NCBI GenBank assembly: GCA_016839745.1
Contig: JAEOTS010000081.1
Span: forward strand, 1-37,346
From: Promethearchaeota archaeon
Lineage (GTDB): Archaea > Asgardarchaeota > Lokiarchaeia > Sigyniarchaeales > SOKP01
Length of the DNA: 37,346 nucleotides
Reading direction: 5' to 3'
This document shows positions 8,399 to 14,810 of this stretch, one piece after another (the stretch's first letter is position 1; each line of letters starts with the position of its first letter). The notes beneath the pieces were generated by a model. That model was not told the origin of the DNA. It worked only from the letters and a program-made list of their open reading frames with translations, and did not search any database. A program made the position numbers and the translations under genes.

Positions 8399-11300
8399 TT
8401 GACGCATATTAAAAAAATCTCAATGACCGGATTTAAATCATTTGGCGATCGTACAGTGACATTAAGGCTCTCTTCAGGGTTCACATGTATCGTCGGACCT
8501 AACGGGGCCGGTAAATCGAATATTATAGACGCTCTAACATTTGCTTTAGGTCGTTTAAGTAAAAAAACCATGAGAGCTAAAAGTCTTGAAGATCTGATTT
8601 TTGCTGGCTCTAGAGGTAAAAATCCTTCAAATAGAGCTTCAGTTACTTTGTATTTCGATAATTCTGAAAAAGTTTTCCCAGGTGGAACTGACACATTTGA
8701 AGTCACTAGAACAATTCAAAGAGGAGGGGGAGGGGGCTATAAAATGAATGGTAAGAAAGCCACCAGACAACAAATTCTTAACGCTCTTGCAACTGCAAAT
8801 GTAGATCCTGATGGTAGTAATCAATTCGTTCTTCAGGGAAAAATAGTAGAGATGACTCATATGAACCCTGAATCTCGTAGAGTATTCATTGAAGATCTTA
8901 TAGGACTTCAGAAATACGATGAGATGAAAGATGCAACAATGAAGGAGTTAGAGAAAGCGGAAAGAGATCTCGGTCAATTTGAAGCAATTTTCAAAGAAGT
9001 ATCATCTCAGTTAAAGAAAGTCGAAAAGGAGAAAAATGACGCTTTAGCTTGGAAGGAATTGGACGAACAGATCAAACTATATAATGCTCAACTAATAGCT
9101 TTAAAAATTGAAAAATTAAGAAAAGAAGAAAATGAACTAGAAGCAAAAATAGAAGAATCTAACACAGCAATTGAAGAATTACAAGAAAAAATAACGAGAC
9201 AAGATGAAATCTTAAAACAAGAATCGTTAGTAATGGAAAATATTCAAAAAACTATATCTGAAAAAGAGAAAGAGAGAGAATTAATCAATGAAAGCATCAC
9301 TCAGCTTAAAACACAGCAATCCTCAAATCAAACCTCTTTAAATCTAGCTAATAAATCAATTGAGAAGATAGCTCAAGAGATAAAAACTTTAGAAAATCTA
9401 CAAATGGTACTCGAAGAAAGTCAAACATATGATTCTTTAATTGAATCGGAATCAAAAATTGTAACGGAAACAGAGAATCGAATTGAGGGTGCAAAGGGTG
9501 AAATAGAAACTAGGCAACAAAAACAAGCCGAAATTGATGTTAATATTAAAAATAACAATGATACACAATCGGGTTTTAAAGGAGAAATTTCTACGGTTAA
9601 ACAGAATATTTCCTCGAACAAAGCTCAAATAAAAGTTTTGAAGGAAAATATAAAAAAAAATGAAGATAAGAAAAAGAAATTAGAAGTAGAACTTAGTAAA
9701 TTGAAAGGAGAATCTGAAAGCGTTGAAGAAGCAATAAAAAGTACAAACAAAGATGCTGAATTAATAAGAAAAGAAATAAGCGACTTAAATATAAAAATAT
9801 CCAAAGAAAATGATAATCAACAAGAATTAGAAAAACTGATAAACGGTTTAAGGGATGAAAAAACTCAATTAAATTCGAAAATAGCTGATTTCAAATCTAT
9901 GTTATCATCTTTAAATACCGAAATTACTATGAACACTAGTAGAATAGAGCGGCTAAATTCGAACAAATTAGCAACAGAGAATAAAATTAAAGAGTTAAGT
10001 AAAGGAAAGGATACAGAAGAAGTTTTAAAGGAATTATTAAAAGAGAGAGAATCCTTCCTTAATGAAGTTAACGATTATAAGGATAAAATAAAACAAGAGG
10101 ATTCTATTTATAGAAAAAATGAGCAGGATTTAGAACTATTACTAATGAAACAAGATTCGGTTGAATCAGAAATTTATGATAACAAGACAAAAATTGAAAA
10201 TATCAACACTAAGTTGAAATTATTAAAAAAGGAATTAACAAATCTTGAAAGAGAAAAACGTGATTTAGTACTAAAAACCTCCACATTAAATGATAATTTA
10301 ACTAAGACTGAGAGTGAATCTCAAAAACTCAATACGAAAAAAGATAACATACAACGACGGATGGGAGAATTAACAACTGAGAAAGATAATTTGTCAGTAA
10401 AAATTGAAAACACAGAAAAAGAGTATGAACGAAATACTGAAGATATTACGGGAATTTTGCAGATATTAAATATGTTGACTCAGAACATCAACATATCCGT
10501 TGAGTCAATAAAAAGCAATATTCAACAATCAAACGCAGAGGCAATTGAAACATCCGCAGTTAACTTCAAACAGTTTGTCTTGGATATAGTCGATATCATG
10601 AAAACTGTTGAAGATGTAAGCTCAGAAGCCGAAGAGGAAGAAAAGTCTGAAACCTCTGAAATGTCTGAAACCCTCAAATCAATTCTTCAAACATTAACCC
10701 TCTTTACTGAGAATGTCGATACAACAATAGATCAGTTAATAGATAATGTAAAAGAATCTGCAGATGTAGAGATACAGCAGTCTACCTCTACATTTGATAG
10801 TTTCGTCCAAGATTTAATGGAAATTTTAGAAAATGTATATCTTTCCTTAAGAAAACTGACTATGTCAAAATCCCAGGAATTATATAAACAACTTGAAGAA
10901 ATCACAGAAAATATCAATTCCCAAAATAACGACTTAAATATCATTGATCGAGATTTAACACGGATAACTACTCAAAATAAACACGATTCAGAAGATTTAG
11001 CAACGAACACCAGAAAGTTAGAAGAAGTCAATAAAAGAATTAGTGAGATAAACGAAAAAGTTGAAAAATCTGAAAGCGAGATCAACCAAAGAAACGCTGT
11101 AATAGGTGAAAAGCAAAAAGAAAATTTCGAGGAAGAAATAAAAAATTTAAAACAAATTAAAGAAGATTATTGGGATAAAATCTCTAATATTAAAAACGAT
11201 ATGGAGATTAAACAAAAGGGATTAGACGAATTACAAACTAAAATGCAAGAACTTCAAGGAATTCAGACCTTCTATGAATCCATCCTTGATATTGAAAAAA

Positions 11301-12862
11301 ATGTACAGGAATTAAATACTGCTATTGACGAAAAGAAAACTGTTATAACCAATACTGAGGACAACATTAAAAACCTCAAACTTGAACAGGATGCTATAAA
11401 TAAGAACATTAAGACTAAAATTGTTGAAAAAGATAACTTTTGGGAAAATACTGAAAAACTTAGAGCGCAAATCGACGATCAAAATAAGAAATTAGAAACT
11501 ACTATGGATAAGTTAAGAGCTCTTGAGAATGTTATGATGGTAATCAATTCAATTGATGAACTTTCTAAAGAAAATGTTGAAGCAAGCAATAGTGTTAATC
11601 AATGCAATCAAAATATAGAAAGTCTAAACTCTCAGGTAGATGAACAGCAAAAAAAGGTCGATGAAGTACAGGTAGTAATAGATTCTTTGAGAGACGAAAA
11701 GAATAAGGAATTAGAGGCACAAAAGAAAGCACAGAAAGAGTTAAATAAACTGAACAAAGATCTTCAAAAATCTCAATCAAAACTTAACGAATTGAACAAG
11801 AACAAGGAAAGAGAGCAAAAAATCATATCACTTAATGAAGATGTAAAAACTACTGAAAAGCAAATAGAATCCATTTTAAAAGATATAGAAAAAATTGAAG
11901 TTGAACTGAAACAGGAAGACGCTAAAAAGAACATTAAGCAGGAAGAAATAAATAAGGAAATACAAGGTAAAGATTTATCGTGGAAGAAGCAGAAGAACTA
12001 TCAAAAGCAAATAAACGATTTAAAAGCCGATCACTCAATGGAAAATTCCAAGTTAAATAATTATGAATCTAAAAAAATTATAACAACAGATCAAATAGAA
12101 ACCTTGTATCAACGCTCTAAAGATTATGGTGCTTTACCTCCATTTACTGACGATTTATCTGAATCAGGACTTCAATCAGACATCTCTACAGCTGATAACA
12201 AGAAAAAAACTCTGGAACCTGTTAATTTAAAAGCTATCAAACAATTTGATACCGTAAAAGAACGTTTTGATGAAATTGATATGAGGAGACAAACTATACA
12301 AAGGGAGAGAAAATCGATTCTCGACGCCATCGATAAAATCGAGCTAGAAAAAACTAGAACCTTTATGAAAGCGTATCACGAAATTAATCGAGAATTTGCA
12401 CGGATCTTCCAAAAACTATCTCCGGGAGGTTCAGCGAAGATGATTTTAGATCGCCCTGATAAACCCTTTGAGGGAGGTGTAAGCATAGAAGCTCGACCTC
12501 GAGGAAAAAAAATCAGTAGTCTTGAAATTCTCAGCGGAGGCGAAAAAACGCTCGTCGCCCTCTCGTTTATCTTTGCGGTGCAGGAGTTCTATCCTGCTCC
12601 TTTTTATATAATGGACGAGATCGATGCGGCCTTGGACTCGCCGAATGTTCACAGAGTCTCCATGGTCATAAAGGAATTTGCACGACAGGCACAATTCATG
12701 GTTATTAGCCACAGAGAGGAGAATATTGTAAACGCCGACCGGATTTATGGAGTTTCAATGCAACAAAGTGGAATCACTGACATTTTTAGCGTTGATTTAG
12801 AAGAAGAGGCGAAAAGGCTACTTGAATTACCAGATGTGCCTCCTAATATTGAAGAAAATTAA
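8399..12862 (+). CDS. smc: Chromosome segregation SMC ATPase (long, non-canonical hinge region)
   Basis: GFKSF, Walker A GPNGAGKSNIIDA, Q-loop FVLQG, signature LSGGEK, Walker B/D-loop YIMDEIDAALD, H-loop VISH, long coiled coils; TTG start. Confidence 0.96.
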   Translation: MTHIKKISMTGFKSFGDRTVTLRLSSGFTCIVGPNGAGKSNIIDALTFALGRLSKKTMRAKSLEDLIFAGSRGKNPSNRASVTLYFDNSEKVFPGGTDTFEVTRTIQRGGGGGYKMNGKKATRQQILNALATANVDPDGSNQFVLQGKIVEMTHMNPESRRVFIEDLIGLQKYDEMKDATMKELEKAERDLGQFEAIFKEVSSQLKKVEKEKNDALAWKELDEQIKLYNAQLIALKIEKLRKEENELEAKIEESNTAIEELQEKITRQDEILKQESLVMENIQKTISEKEKERELINESITQLKTQQSSNQTSLNLANKSIEKIAQEIKTLENLQMVLEESQTYDSLIESESKIVTETENRIEGAKGEIETRQQKQAEIDVNIKNNNDTQSGFKGEISTVKQNISSNKAQIKVLKENIKKNEDKKKKLEVELSKLKGESESVEEAIKSTNKDAELIRKEISDLNIKISKENDNQQELEKLINGLRDEKTQLNSKIADFKSMLSSLNTEITMNTSRIERLNSNKLATENKIKELSKGKDTEEVLKELLKERESFLNEVNDYKDKIKQEDSIYRKNEQDLELLLMKQDSVESEIYDNKTKIENINTKLKLLKKELTNLEREKRDLVLKTSTLNDNLTKTESESQKLNTKKDNIQRRMGELTTEKDNLSVKIENTEKEYERNTEDITGILQILNMLTQNINISVESIKSNIQQSNAEAIETSAVNFKQFVLDIVDIMKTVEDVSSEAEEEEKSETSEMSETLKSILQTLTLFTENVDTTIDQLIDNVKESADVEIQQSTSTFDSFVQDLMEILENVYLSLRKLTMSKSQELYKQLEEITENINSQNNDLNIIDRDLTRITTQNKHDSEDLATNTRKLEEVNKRISEINEKVEKSESEINQRNAVIGEKQKENFEEEIKNLKQIKEDYWDKISNIKNDMEIKQKGLDELQTKMQELQGIQTFYESILDIEKNVQELNTAIDEKKTVITNTEDNIKNLKLEQDAINKNIKTKIVEKDNFWENTEKLRAQIDDQNKKLETTMDKLRALENVMMVINSIDELSKENVEASNSVNQCNQNIESLNSQVDEQQKKVDEVQVVIDSLRDEKNKELEAQKKAQKELNKLNKDLQKSQSKLNELNKNKEREQKIISLNEDVKTTEKQIESILKDIEKIEVELKQEDAKKNIKQEEINKEIQGKDLSWKKQKNYQKQINDLKADHSMENSKLNNYESKKIITTDQIETLYQRSKDYGALPPFTDDLSESGLQSDISTADNKKKTLEPVNLKAIKQFDTVKERFDEIDMRRQTIQRERKSILDAIDKIELEKTRTFMKAYHEINREFARIFQKLSPGGSAKMILDRPDKPFEGGVSIEARPRGKKISSLEILSGGEKTLVALSFIFAVQEFYPAPFYIMDEIDAALDSPNVHRVSMVIKEFARQAQFMVISHREENIVNADRIYGVSMQQSGITDIFSVDLEEEAKRLLELPDVPPNIEEN
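10454..10837 (+). repeat. Protein-level tandem duplication (2 x 52 aa) at the SMC apex
   Basis: 10454-10609 ILQILNMLTQN...FKQFVLDIVDIMKTV aligns without gaps to 10682-10837 ILQTLTLFTEN...FDSFVQDLMEILENV; 16/52 identical by hand count. Confidence 0.85.
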
Positions 12863-12900
12863 AAGCTTAATTAAAAAATATAATCCTAAGGTGAAAAATA

Positions 12901-13908
12901 ATATCAGAAGACAACGGTGGGGAGAAAAAATATAACTTCAATGATTGGACTGTAAAACAGTTAAGAGATTTTGCTAGCAGGAATCATATTAAAATTCCCA
13001 CTAAATCTAAGAAGAACGAAATTATTAAGCTTATAGAACAAATTTCTTCACATCCTGAATTCGTTGATAGAACTCAAGAAGACGAGGTTGAAGAAGAGGA
13101 AATAGAAGAGGAATTAATTGCCGGTGAAGAAGAAGATCCAGCGTTACTCCACAAAGAAAAGATGGAGCTCAAATTCTGGCAAAAACCTCCCTATTCTAGT
13201 TTATTGGACCCAGAAGTGGCAAAAGAGTCCAATGTTGCATTCTATGACTTATCTTCATTAGTAGATAAATTCTTTAATAATATGCTTCACGAAGATTTAA
13301 TCAATTACAAAATCTCGGGCATAGCACTTAAGACATCTGCAATTTTGCATCACTACAAGATATCTAGTATAATTCGAGAGGAAGAACAAATACAAAAAAA
13401 AGAAGAGTTAGAACGTTTTAGGGAAAGGCATGGTAGATCAATACCCAAATCTTTAGCACAACCCATTCAACCTAAAATGTTGATTTCTACAAAGGATGAA
13501 TTATTTGAAGCTATGAGATCTGCTATAATCGAAACGATGCAAAACAAAGAGAAATTGAAACGCAGAAGAATGAGACGGGACGAATTAAAAGAACAAAAAC
13601 TTCAAATAAAATCCAAAGCCCAATTACCAAAAGAACTTTTAAAGCACATTAGTGGCAGGGAGCAAACCGTACAAGAATTACATGATTCTTGGTTTAACCG
13701 CATCAAATCTAAAATACAACTTGATGATAAAGAAACATCCTTTTTTGAAATAGCTGAGCTTATTAATACCGAAGAAGAAAGCGACCTTGGCAAGAAGTTC
13801 GCTTTTGTGCGTATGTTTTTAGCTTTAATGTTCCTCTCGACTGGTAGTAAGTTAGAACTTTATCAAGACGAGGATTTTAAGAATTTCTCAATAAATTTAA
13901 AGAAATAA
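12901..13908 (+). CDS. scpA: Kleisin ScpA with N-terminal SAP/HeH-like domain and acidic linker (335 aa; probable ATA start)
   Basis: ScpA N-domain (YDLSSLVDKF...NYKISGIALKTSAILHHYK) and C-terminal wHTH (FVRMFLALMFL...LELYQDEDF). Frame is open upstream of ATG 13162 to TGA 12892-12894; GGTGA at 12890-12894 lies 6 nt before ATA 12901. Confidence 0.85.
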   Translation: MSEDNGGEKKYNFNDWTVKQLRDFASRNHIKIPTKSKKNEIIKLIEQISSHPEFVDRTQEDEVEEEEIEEELIAGEEEDPALLHKEKMELKFWQKPPYSSLLDPEVAKESNVAFYDLSSLVDKFFNNMLHEDLINYKISGIALKTSAILHHYKISSIIREEEQIQKKEELERFRERHGRSIPKSLAQPIQPKMLISTKDELFEAMRSAIIETMQNKEKLKRRRMRRDELKEQKLQIKSKAQLPKELLKHISGREQTVQELHDSWFNRIKSKIQLDDKETSFFEIAELINTEEESDLGKKFAFVRMFLALMFLSTGSKLELYQDEDFKNFSINLKK

Positions 13909-13937
13909 ACTAGATCCCTAATTTTTGGTGATAGAAA

Positions 13938-14810
13938 CTGAACGAAAGAAATGAAAAAGAACAAGAAGATCAATTCGAATCCGAAACGGAAGAAGAAACA
14001 CCTTTAGACGAGACTAGTGATGAAGAAATTGTTCAAGAAGAAAGGATTATAGAAGATACTGAGATCGATATAGAAACCGAAGAGACAATAGAAGAATCTC
14101 TTAAAGAAGATTTTGAAGAAAAATATACCCAAGAAAATATTGAAGTAGAAATTGGTATTGAGAAGGAAGATTTATTGAGTCTCCAACCCTCAGTAGAAAG
14201 TTTAGAAGAACAAGATACCGAAGTTATAGGAGAATATACAACTGAATCCCACATGACTCAAGAACTCACGAAAGAAGATTTAGAATTACAATTAAAAGTT
14301 CTACGAAGGAATCTTATAGAAGGTGCTCTTTATGCTGCCGGTAGACCTCTGGATGTAGAGGAATTATCTACTAAATTAGAAATCCCAAAAAAAGAAGTAG
14401 AAGAACTTGTGAGAGTTGTTGCTTTTGACTATTTAGAGCGTGAGGGTGCATTGATTGTTGCTCAAATTGGAGAAAAATATCAAATGCAGCTAAGACCTGA
14501 ACTTACCGAGACAGTTTCCAAATTTGCTAAAGGAGGTGCCATTGCTGAGCGCTATTTAAGAACACTTACTGTAATTGCTTTAAAACAACCAATTTTAAAG
14601 TCAACAGTTATTAAAATACGAGGAACCGGTGCTTATGAGCATGTTAAATACCTCTTAGACAATGATTTGGTAACTGCTGTAAAAAAAGGAAGATCAGCTG
14701 AATTAACCACAACAGATAAGTACGCAGACATGTTCGGACTACCTAAAAATAAGGAAGAACTGAAAAGGATGATGATTTCACAATTAGATCTTGGAGAAAA
14801 TAACGATTAA
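13938..14810 (+). CDS. scpB: SMC-Scp complex subunit ScpB (kite) with long acidic N-terminal tail (290 aa; probable CTG start)
   Basis: IEGALYAAGRPL, LRTLTVIALKQPI, KIRG, YEHVKYL and TTDKYADMFGL are ScpB motifs. Frame is open back to TAG 13932-13934; GGTGA at 13927-13931 lies 6 nt before CTG 13938. Confidence 0.88.
   Translation: MNERNEKEQEDQFESETEEETPLDETSDEEIVQEERIIEDTEIDIETEETIEESLKEDFEEKYTQENIEVEIGIEKEDLLSLQPSVESLEEQDTEVIGEYTTESHMTQELTKEDLELQLKVLRRNLIEGALYAAGRPLDVEELSTKLEIPKKEVEELVRVVAFDYLEREGALIVAQIGEKYQMQLRPELTETVSKFAKGGAIAERYLRTLTVIALKQPILKSTVIKIRGTGAYEHVKYLLDNDLVTAVKKGRSAELTTTDKYADMFGLPKNKEELKRMMISQLDLGENND

Follow-up and report, generated by a model that had tools for sequence, protein, structure and literature searches.

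The hinge is regarded as a defining part of Smc, condensin, cohesin and Smc5/6 with important functions: dimerisation and DNA binding are ascribed to it, as is, in some models, the role of a DNA gate. How an Smc could be built without one is the question raised by a gene of a Promethearchaeota archaeon (GCA_016839745.1). The gene lies within a window of 37,346 nucleotides, the whole stretch of DNA analysed here (contig JAEOTS010000081.1, positions 1 to 37,346). This hinge-less, long-arm smc gene (8399..12862, on the forward strand, as are all features of the window given below) starts with TTG and encodes 1487 amino acids (aa); the consensus of its orthologues begins with MTYIKKISM at the same position. 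The product is an ATPase-competent Smc with partner genes, in which a helical module that is conserved, acidic and duplicated takes the place of the hinge. The best explanation, probable when taken as a whole, is that the protein is a paralogue that arose from a canonical archaeal Smc and exists only in the order of Lokiarchaeum and Promethearchaeum, that the helical module took the place of the hinge and would join the arm tips, and that the complex is the sole one of Smc-ScpAB type in this genus.

Heads, arms and the absence of a hinge

The canonical head motifs claimed in an earlier, sequence-only reading of the locus are borne out by the translation and by the SMC_N match of Pfam (139.8 bits). 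The N-terminal half of the ATPase head (aa 1-175; 8399..8923), to which SMC_N matches, carries Walker A (GPNGAGKS) and the Q-loop (LQGK). The C-terminal half (12119..12862) carries the signature motif (LSGGEKT), Walker B/D-loop (FYIMDEIDAALD) and the H-loop (SHR). With the NCBIfam models, TIGR02168 scored above its cut-off (582.9 bits against 567.35) and TIGR02169 below (594.3 against 729.4). Among solved structures, the nearest to both halves is Pyrococcus Smc, at 160 bits for the N-terminal half (1xew) and 212 bits for the C-terminal half (5xei). Bacillus Smc follows at ~100 and ~150 bits, then eukaryotic SMC1-4, with SMC5/6 at ~30 bits. Horizontal transfer from bacteria was set aside, as the heads score far higher against Pyrococcus than against Bacillus Smc; the canonical Smc of the same order scores alike.

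Between aa 170 and 1240 Pro is absent and Gly very scarce. The N-terminal strand of the coiled-coil arm (aa 176-675; 8924..10423) is thus Pro-free, and its modelled portion (aa 581-709) forms one helix. The C-terminal strand (aa 825-1240; 10871..12118) is recognised from composition and from the AlphaFold2 (AF2) model, which covers aa 580-930 as a monomer and was built on an alignment of 24 orthologues. In this model helices 581-709 and 824-906 are paired, with a predicted local distance difference test (pLDDT) score >90, as a long intramolecular antiparallel coiled coil.

The centre of the protein had been said to lack an alpha/beta hinge, and each search aimed at one agrees. A Pfam search, as the sequence-only reading had proposed, found no match to SMC_hinge (PF06470) in the 1487-aa protein even at E<=1. 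When the apex alignment was compared with an alignment of 22 Asgard hinge regions, hhalign gave a probability of 1.1% and aligned flanking coiled coil only. The AF2 model contains no beta strands, and the interval aa 676-824 has one Gly and no Pro. Neither Foldseek nor VIA, an alignment-independent superposition search, ranked any hinge chain above generic bundles. A phmmer search of aa 568-967 against all sequences of the Protein Data Bank (PDB) returned chance coiled-coil matches only (E >= 0.06), and a feature search of the ESM Atlas stayed within the noise range, with no score above 0.80. In a six-frame hinge search of the whole genome, the sole match lay on another contig (C38). The module does occupy the position of the hinge; otherwise no support was found for a cryptic, strongly diverged hinge persisting in aa 676-824, and against the results above this explanation is close to refuted.

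The absence of a Rad50-type zinc hook was also confirmed. The only two Cys residues of the protein are aa 30 and 1069, and therefore there is no CxxC in the Smc and no Cys in the apex. The Rad50 models of NCBIfam reach 33-91 bits against cut-offs of 700-1087. No Mre11/SbcD gene is found among the neighbours, which are the kleisin and ScpB genes, a 397-aa open reading frame (ORF) without a Pfam match, a CN-hydrolase and a PFL-like enzyme. RecN does not fit either, with 26.6 bits for TIGR00634 against a cut-off of 407.85, and ~550 aa for RecN against 1487 aa here. For MukB, the sole match was to its coiled-coil elbow (6h2x, Foldseek), and the partner encoded at this locus is of ScpB type; its lack from fold-search lists does not exclude the MukB/MksB/JetC family.

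Duplication, predicted fold and conservation of the apex module

In place of a hinge, the rod ends in an apex module (aa 676-824; 10424..10870), delimited by the AF2 model, VIA, conservation and composition. The interval singled out earlier, 10430-10900, corresponds to aa 678-834. Within it, two 52-aa units had been described with an acidic loop between them, and this description was reproduced exactly. Repeat unit 1 (aa 686-737; 10454..10609) and repeat unit 2 (aa 762-813; 10682..10837) align gap-free when offset by 76 aa, and 16/52 positions are identical. The loop, SSEAEEEEKSETSEMSET, is acidic and Ser-rich (aa 742-759; 10622..10675) and differs in length among orthologues. The BLOSUM62 local score of the pair is 96, compared with 31.7±5.9 for shuffled sequences (0/1000 reach 96) and 59 for the best arm-segment control in the same Smc. 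With profiles from 24 orthologues, hhalign aligned unit 1 and unit 2 at 98% probability (E 1.5e-13, 58 columns in register), and each unit against arm segments at <=1.5%. Judged by these sequence comparisons, the tandem duplication of one helical hairpin within the apex is real.

The AF2 model is all-helical, with a mean pLDDT of 83; the apex scores 70-80 and the loop, at ~53, is lowest. Helices are predicted, in protein numbering, at 581-709, 713-745, 752-786, 789-820, 824-906 and 911-929. The order of the helices, together with tight turns at 710-712 and 787-788, sets the topology of the apex. The N-arm helix would continue as H1 up to the tip, from which H2 would run back. The variable acidic loop would then lie on the arm-proximal side, H3 would climb to the tip and H4 would continue into the C-arm helix. 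The four helices (hairpins H1-H2 in unit 1 and H3-H4 in unit 2) would pack as an antiparallel, up-down four-helix bundle which continues and caps the arm. Since each repeat unit is one hairpin, the bundle would be a pseudo-dimer of hairpins.

A Foldseek search with the model of arm and apex against the PDB, also proposed beforehand, returned generic coiled coils only (MukB elbow, chemoreceptors, dynein stalks). With VIA, in which model residues 97-245 correspond to aa 676-824, the best superpositions of the predicted apex were on up-down four-helix bundles, with Z 14.7-16.2 and a root-mean-square deviation (rmsd) of 2.0-2.3 Å over 129-144 residues. These include the designed bundle 6egc (Z 16.2, rmsd 2.2 Å, 144 residues), the vinculin tail (3jbi; Z 14.8) and the FAT-like domain of p130Cas (3t6g/5w93; Z 14.7). 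According to the warning of the tool itself, helical models reach Z ~13-14 by chance. The sequence identity to these bundles is 8-11%, and theirs is a generic fold without implied common ancestry or function. A four-helix bundle is thus a plausible fold class for the apex, not a relationship. The earlier suggestion of an all-helical apex, possibly a helical bundle, is supported to this extent by the model and its superpositions.

The composition of the apex sets it apart from the arms. It is the most hydrophobic stretch of the rod, with a fraction of ILMFVWY of 0.46 in a 35-aa window against a mean of 0.276±0.056. Its Lys and Arg content is 6%, compared with 17-18% in the arms, and its net charge is -20. 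As the apex has almost no Lys or Arg, it probably offers no DNA-binding surface of the kind found in hinges, and a hinge-like basic role in DNA binding is unlikely. Within the hinge-less family, mean column identity is 0.85 in the apex helices and 0.72-0.76 in the arms. H1 and H4 reach 0.92, near the heads at 0.93, and the loop, variable in both length and sequence, falls to 0.59. Between orthologues the apex helices have a nonsynonymous divergence (dN) of 0.03-0.13, with synonymous divergence (dS) saturated and dN/dS of ~0.02-0.06 where computable. The apex is under strong purifying selection. Hydrophobic residues also occupy nominally outward heptad positions in H1 and H4, the heptad assignment being approximate. 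Such outward hydrophobic faces would fit, and suggest, an interface beyond the four-helix core.

Distribution, paralogy and partner genes

The survey of Asgard homologues covered 400 genomes. The apex core is present in 130/153 genomes of one Asgard order, distributed over its four families as 113/134, 1/1, 14/14 and 2/4. The carriers include the closed chromosomes of Ca. Harpocratesius repetitus, Ca. Lokiarchaeum ossiferum Loki-B35 and Promethearchaeum syntrophicum MK-D1. Outside the order, two stray strong matches and two marginal ones were found among the 400 genomes. The strong matches in genome G039 lie on short contigs (C256, C234, C278), are ~80% identical to the type of family f1, to which the present genome belongs, and look like mis-binning. 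The strong match in genome G063 of another Asgard family (C70:3652-4110), where a 1501-aa ORF is 40% identical, could be due to mis-binning or transfer.

The source is a metagenome-assembled genome in 192 contigs, which might invite the explanation of an assembly artefact or decaying pseudogene. This explanation is refuted: the same architecture is found at 1475-1510 aa, in one open frame, in >130 genomes including closed chromosomes of cultured strains, and dN/dS is far below 1. Protein databases give a similar picture. With aa 600-900 as query, 169 matches were obtained among 5.8 billion proteins; among the matches listed (120), identity is 62-100%, full-length proteins are of 1464-1487 aa, none has PF06470, and those with names bear the label Lokiarchaeota or Promethearchaeota. 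An exhaustive HMMER pass with the 160-aa core over 1.84 billion representative proteins gave 31 matches.

A shorter member of the hinge-less clade was found in the representative library (P0147, 1296 aa). The heads share 63% identity with those of the window Smc, the module lies at aa 588-730, and in the head tree the protein is sister to all ~1480-aa forms; members of the clade thus differ by ~190 aa in the length of their arms. The module also occurs in a head-less family of 920-1120 aa without a Pfam match, with one copy at aa ~72-220 and a possible second at ~320-470. The middle of these proteins is non-helical-looking and is followed by a Lys-rich C-terminal tail of TTKK repeats that resembles a DNA-binding tail. 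They were found in part of family f3 only, and not in family f1. Examples are encoded by Ca. Harpocratesius repetitus (L012:3997-7122, reverse strand), Ca. L. ossiferum (L014:5688-9044, forward strand) and P. syntrophicum MK-D1 (L015:3981-6746, reverse strand). For the N-terminal 330 aa of this family, the pLDDT of the AF2 model is 72.8 overall and 64-69 in the module.

The same 400 genomes were scanned with PF06470 for canonical Smc. Many genomes of the order, including all three closed ones, also hold a canonical Smc of ~1200 aa with a strong hinge (E 1e-25 to 1e-35), and in sister lineages a second ScpB gene lies beside it or within a few kilobases. A third Smc, related to SMC5/6, has a weak hinge. 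The sequence-only reading was right as to the hinge and lacked this context: the protein is an order-specific extra paralogue, next to canonical Smc in sister lineages, which include both cultured Lokiarchaeia, rather than simply the one Smc of its organism after loss of the hinge. The genus of the present genome (g1) has a different pattern, with a weak hinge match only in 37/41 genomes; in the largest sister genus (g12) this holds for 49/54. No strong hinge was found among the genomes of g1 and g12 that have a PF06470 match, and canonical Smc appears to be absent from both genera. The canonical complex has been lost repeatedly and the hinge-less complex kept. With canonical Smc and its ScpB gone from this genus, the hinge-less complex is presumably the only chromosome organiser of Smc-ScpAB type in the cell. 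In families f13, f14, f15 and f24 (e.g. G011, G015, G018, G019) few or no SMC_hinge matches were obtained. A different hinge-less Smc in family f13 was considered and rejected, as in the four genomes tested no Smc-type head was found at E<=1e-8; they seem to lack canonical Smc altogether.

The present genome has exactly two Smc-sized ORFs matching SMC_N, and one ScpB. The second Smc (contig C38; L010:5502-8927) is of the same superfamily and related to SMC5/6. It is followed by two small overlapping ORFs (L010 8930-9577 and 9570-10106) without a Pfam match, which probably encode a kleisin and a kite, as expected of such a pair. It differs from the hinge-less Smc in keeping a weak match to SMC_hinge (28-34 bits), and its heads are 23% identical to those of the hinge-less protein.

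A head-domain phylogeny (404 columns, LG+C20) was rooted on the SMC5/6-like proteins, which form a separate clade (100/100). The hinge-less proteins form a clade of their own (99/98), as does the canonical Smc of the order (100/99). All Asgard canonical Smc group together, with the hinge-less clade outside (86/85), and hinge-less heads are ~40% identical to any Asgard canonical Smc. A recent origin by duplication of the order's canonical Smc thus disagrees with the best tree; the approximately unbiased (AU) test does not reject a clade of the two (p 0.214). With 86/85 in the best tree but this result from the AU test, the head tree would place the duplication at or before the base of the order, on a long stem, and allows no closer dating.

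Downstream of smc, the earlier reading had placed scpA and scpB. The scpB gene stands: PF04079 matches with 116 bits and TIGR00281 with 97 bits against a cut-off of 89. It lies in an open frame at 13935..14810, in which the first common start codon is TTG at 14175. The 80 codons before it (13935-14174) encode a very acidic N-terminal extension of the kite subunit, and orthologues carry N-terminal extensions of ~165 aa ahead of the ScpB domain.

The gene between them (12895..13908; 337 codons) has no Pfam match when searched alone. A profile of five orthologues matches the N-domain of a solved ScpA (6ivh_A, E 7.4e-4) and, at its C-terminus, the winged helix of ScpA (5xns_C and 4i99_C, co-crystallised with Pyrococcus Smc; E 0.27-0.47), the two matches being in the correct order. 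One orthologue (G147) has a weak match to PF02616 (E 3.7e-3). The gene sits between smc and scpB in all orthologous loci examined. Its designation as a divergent, ScpA-like kleisin is thus weakly supported by sequence, with gene position in addition. The claim of an otherwise Smc-ScpAB-type complex holds for the set of Smc, putative kleisin and ScpB genes; the genome itself is not hinge-free, given the weak SMC_hinge match on C38. The frame of the putative kleisin is open for 89 codons (12895-13161) upstream of the first ATG at 13162, without ATG, GTG or TTG, and a GTG at 12891 is out of frame. Over this upstream stretch the Ish1/HeH motif PF10281 scores 29.5 bits, above its cut-off of 26.6, and in orthologues of family f3 a Lys-rich tail is found at the same position.

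Proposed function and comparison with known systems

To our knowledge, the arms of every characterised long-armed SMC-family protein are joined at the apex by a hinge, hook or coiled-coil tip. For this reason, and because the module is constrained like the heads and has excess hydrophobic surface, we infer a role as arm-tip dimeriser, to which about an even chance is given. The bundle would serve as a constitutive dimerisation site at the arm tips, either bundle against bundle or by a hairpin swap across the flexible loop. Dimerisation would keep the ring of Smc and kleisin closed, as the hinge or the Rad50 zinc hook does, with an apex that would have no hinge-like DNA-binding surface. It has been reported that Smc of B. 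subtilis is functional with its hinge replaced by the Pyrococcus Rad50 zinc hook (PMC5344682), and that zinc hook and hinge are interchangeable dimerisers (PMC6969161). As this swap works, an unrelated constitutive dimeriser is enough. The proposal that the bundle genuinely substitutes for the hinge in nature, that it joins two ~70-nm arms without binding DNA at the apex and that this is the sole condensin-type motor in the many Lokiarchaeial lineages without canonical Smc, is tentative, the balance lying slightly against it.

Several points weigh against dimerisation and the explanation built around it. In the AF2 monomer model the bundle is closed within one chain. Duplication is the way in which an intermolecular four-helix bundle becomes intramolecular, so the tandem duplication that closes the bundle could equally have abolished an ancestral contact between molecules. 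The apex has a pLDDT of only 70-80, and its bundle matches, at Z 13-16, are near chance level for helical models. In the poor model of the head-less family the hairpins are not resolved and the bundle does not reappear. The scores behind the kleisin assignment are weak. With the genome at 89% completeness, the absence of canonical Smc rests mainly on the genus-wide pattern.

Most of the probability outside dimerisation goes to a bundle that does not dimerise and would serve as a cap or docking platform. Only the ATP-engaged heads and the kleisin would then hold the two Smc proteins together, in an open, two-rod complex, and the conserved acidic, hydrophobic tip would bind another partner, e.g. 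a basic chromatin protein or a loader. Closure of the bundle in one chain and a duplication that yields an internally satisfied pseudo-dimer both suit such a cap, as do the strong conservation, the net charge of -20 and the variable acidic loop if the partner is basic. It is nevertheless doubtful, as it would break with the joined arm tips of all characterised long-armed SMC-family proteins. The hydrophobic faces of H1 and H4 are unusually wide, which points to an interface that extends past the four-helix core, and the operon contains no conserved gene that would be a candidate for the partner. The apex might instead pair with the same module in another protein, either the head-less coiled-coil protein of 920-1120 aa or, in a hetero-complex, canonical Smc. 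A second protein family in f3 genomes does carry, close to the N-terminus, a copy of the module that can be recognised; however, it was found only in part of f3 and not in f1. Canonical Smc is missing from the present genus, yet the apex there is 85-100% identical, and pairing of this kind is very improbable.

If the arm tips are indeed joined by the bundle, the DNA-binding and gate functions attributed to the hinge would be dispensable for a working natural Smc-ScpAB complex, in the closest cultured relatives of eukaryotes. The module is a new candidate for helical dimerisation, and the complex is a third SMC complex for the lineage nearest to eukaryotes. An entire order of archaea, to which the cultured MK-D1 and Ca. 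L. ossiferum belong, has evolved and retained an Smc that is free of a hinge and has a kleisin and a kite of its own. Some lineages hold the canonical complex together with the hinge-less one and in others the hinge-less complex alone survives, which amounts to a natural test of the essential hinge functions. The hinge-less Smc proteins are expressible and directly testable, and are carried by cultured organisms.

No description of a hinge-less Asgard Smc was found in the searchable literature, and searches combining Lokiarchaeia or Prometheoarchaeum with SMC returned nothing relevant there. In two surveys of how SMC proteins evolved, both with Asgard archaea among the taxa covered, two to three SMC complexes are described for this group, and the accessible portions make no mention of a missing hinge (10.1101/2024.01.07.573240; PMC8665677). 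Replacement of the hinge was previously known mainly from the engineered chimera of Smc and zinc hook and from one metagenomic clade of Actinobacteria. The accessible part of the latter account presents a ‘hinge-less’ SMC clade of oceanic Actinobacteria, recovered from metagenomes, which likewise has SMC-type heads and arms and neither hinge nor CxxC (PMC12153180). That clade is bacterial, and in the same part, compared by description only, no duplicated helical module, ScpAB operon or coexisting paralogues are described (PMC12153180).

Compared with canonical Smc-ScpAB of Pyrococcus and B. subtilis, the complex shares the head motifs, the long antiparallel arms and the adjacent genes for a kleisin, here putative, and an ScpB kite. 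The canonical Smc has a hinge where the hinge-less Smc has an acidic helical bundle of duplicated hairpins. The part outside the heads is ~1070 aa in the hinge-less protein and ~850 aa in an Smc of ~1200 aa, so that the arms are longer. Its putative kleisin, unlike canonical ScpA, is too divergent for Pfam and has an N-terminal motif of HeH type.

The Rad50/SbcC hook and the engineered Smc(Zh) of B. subtilis likewise have something other than a hinge where an SMC-type coiled coil ends (PMC5344682; PMC6969161). In contrast to the short Rad50 hook, the apex comprises ~150 aa and four predicted helices, and is without Cys and hence without a metal site; the partners of the hinge-less Smc are a putative kleisin and a kite, not Mre11. 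The Smc(Zh) chimera was engineered, whereas the hinge-less Asgard Smc is natural: nature appears to run an Smc-ScpAB-type machine without a hinge.

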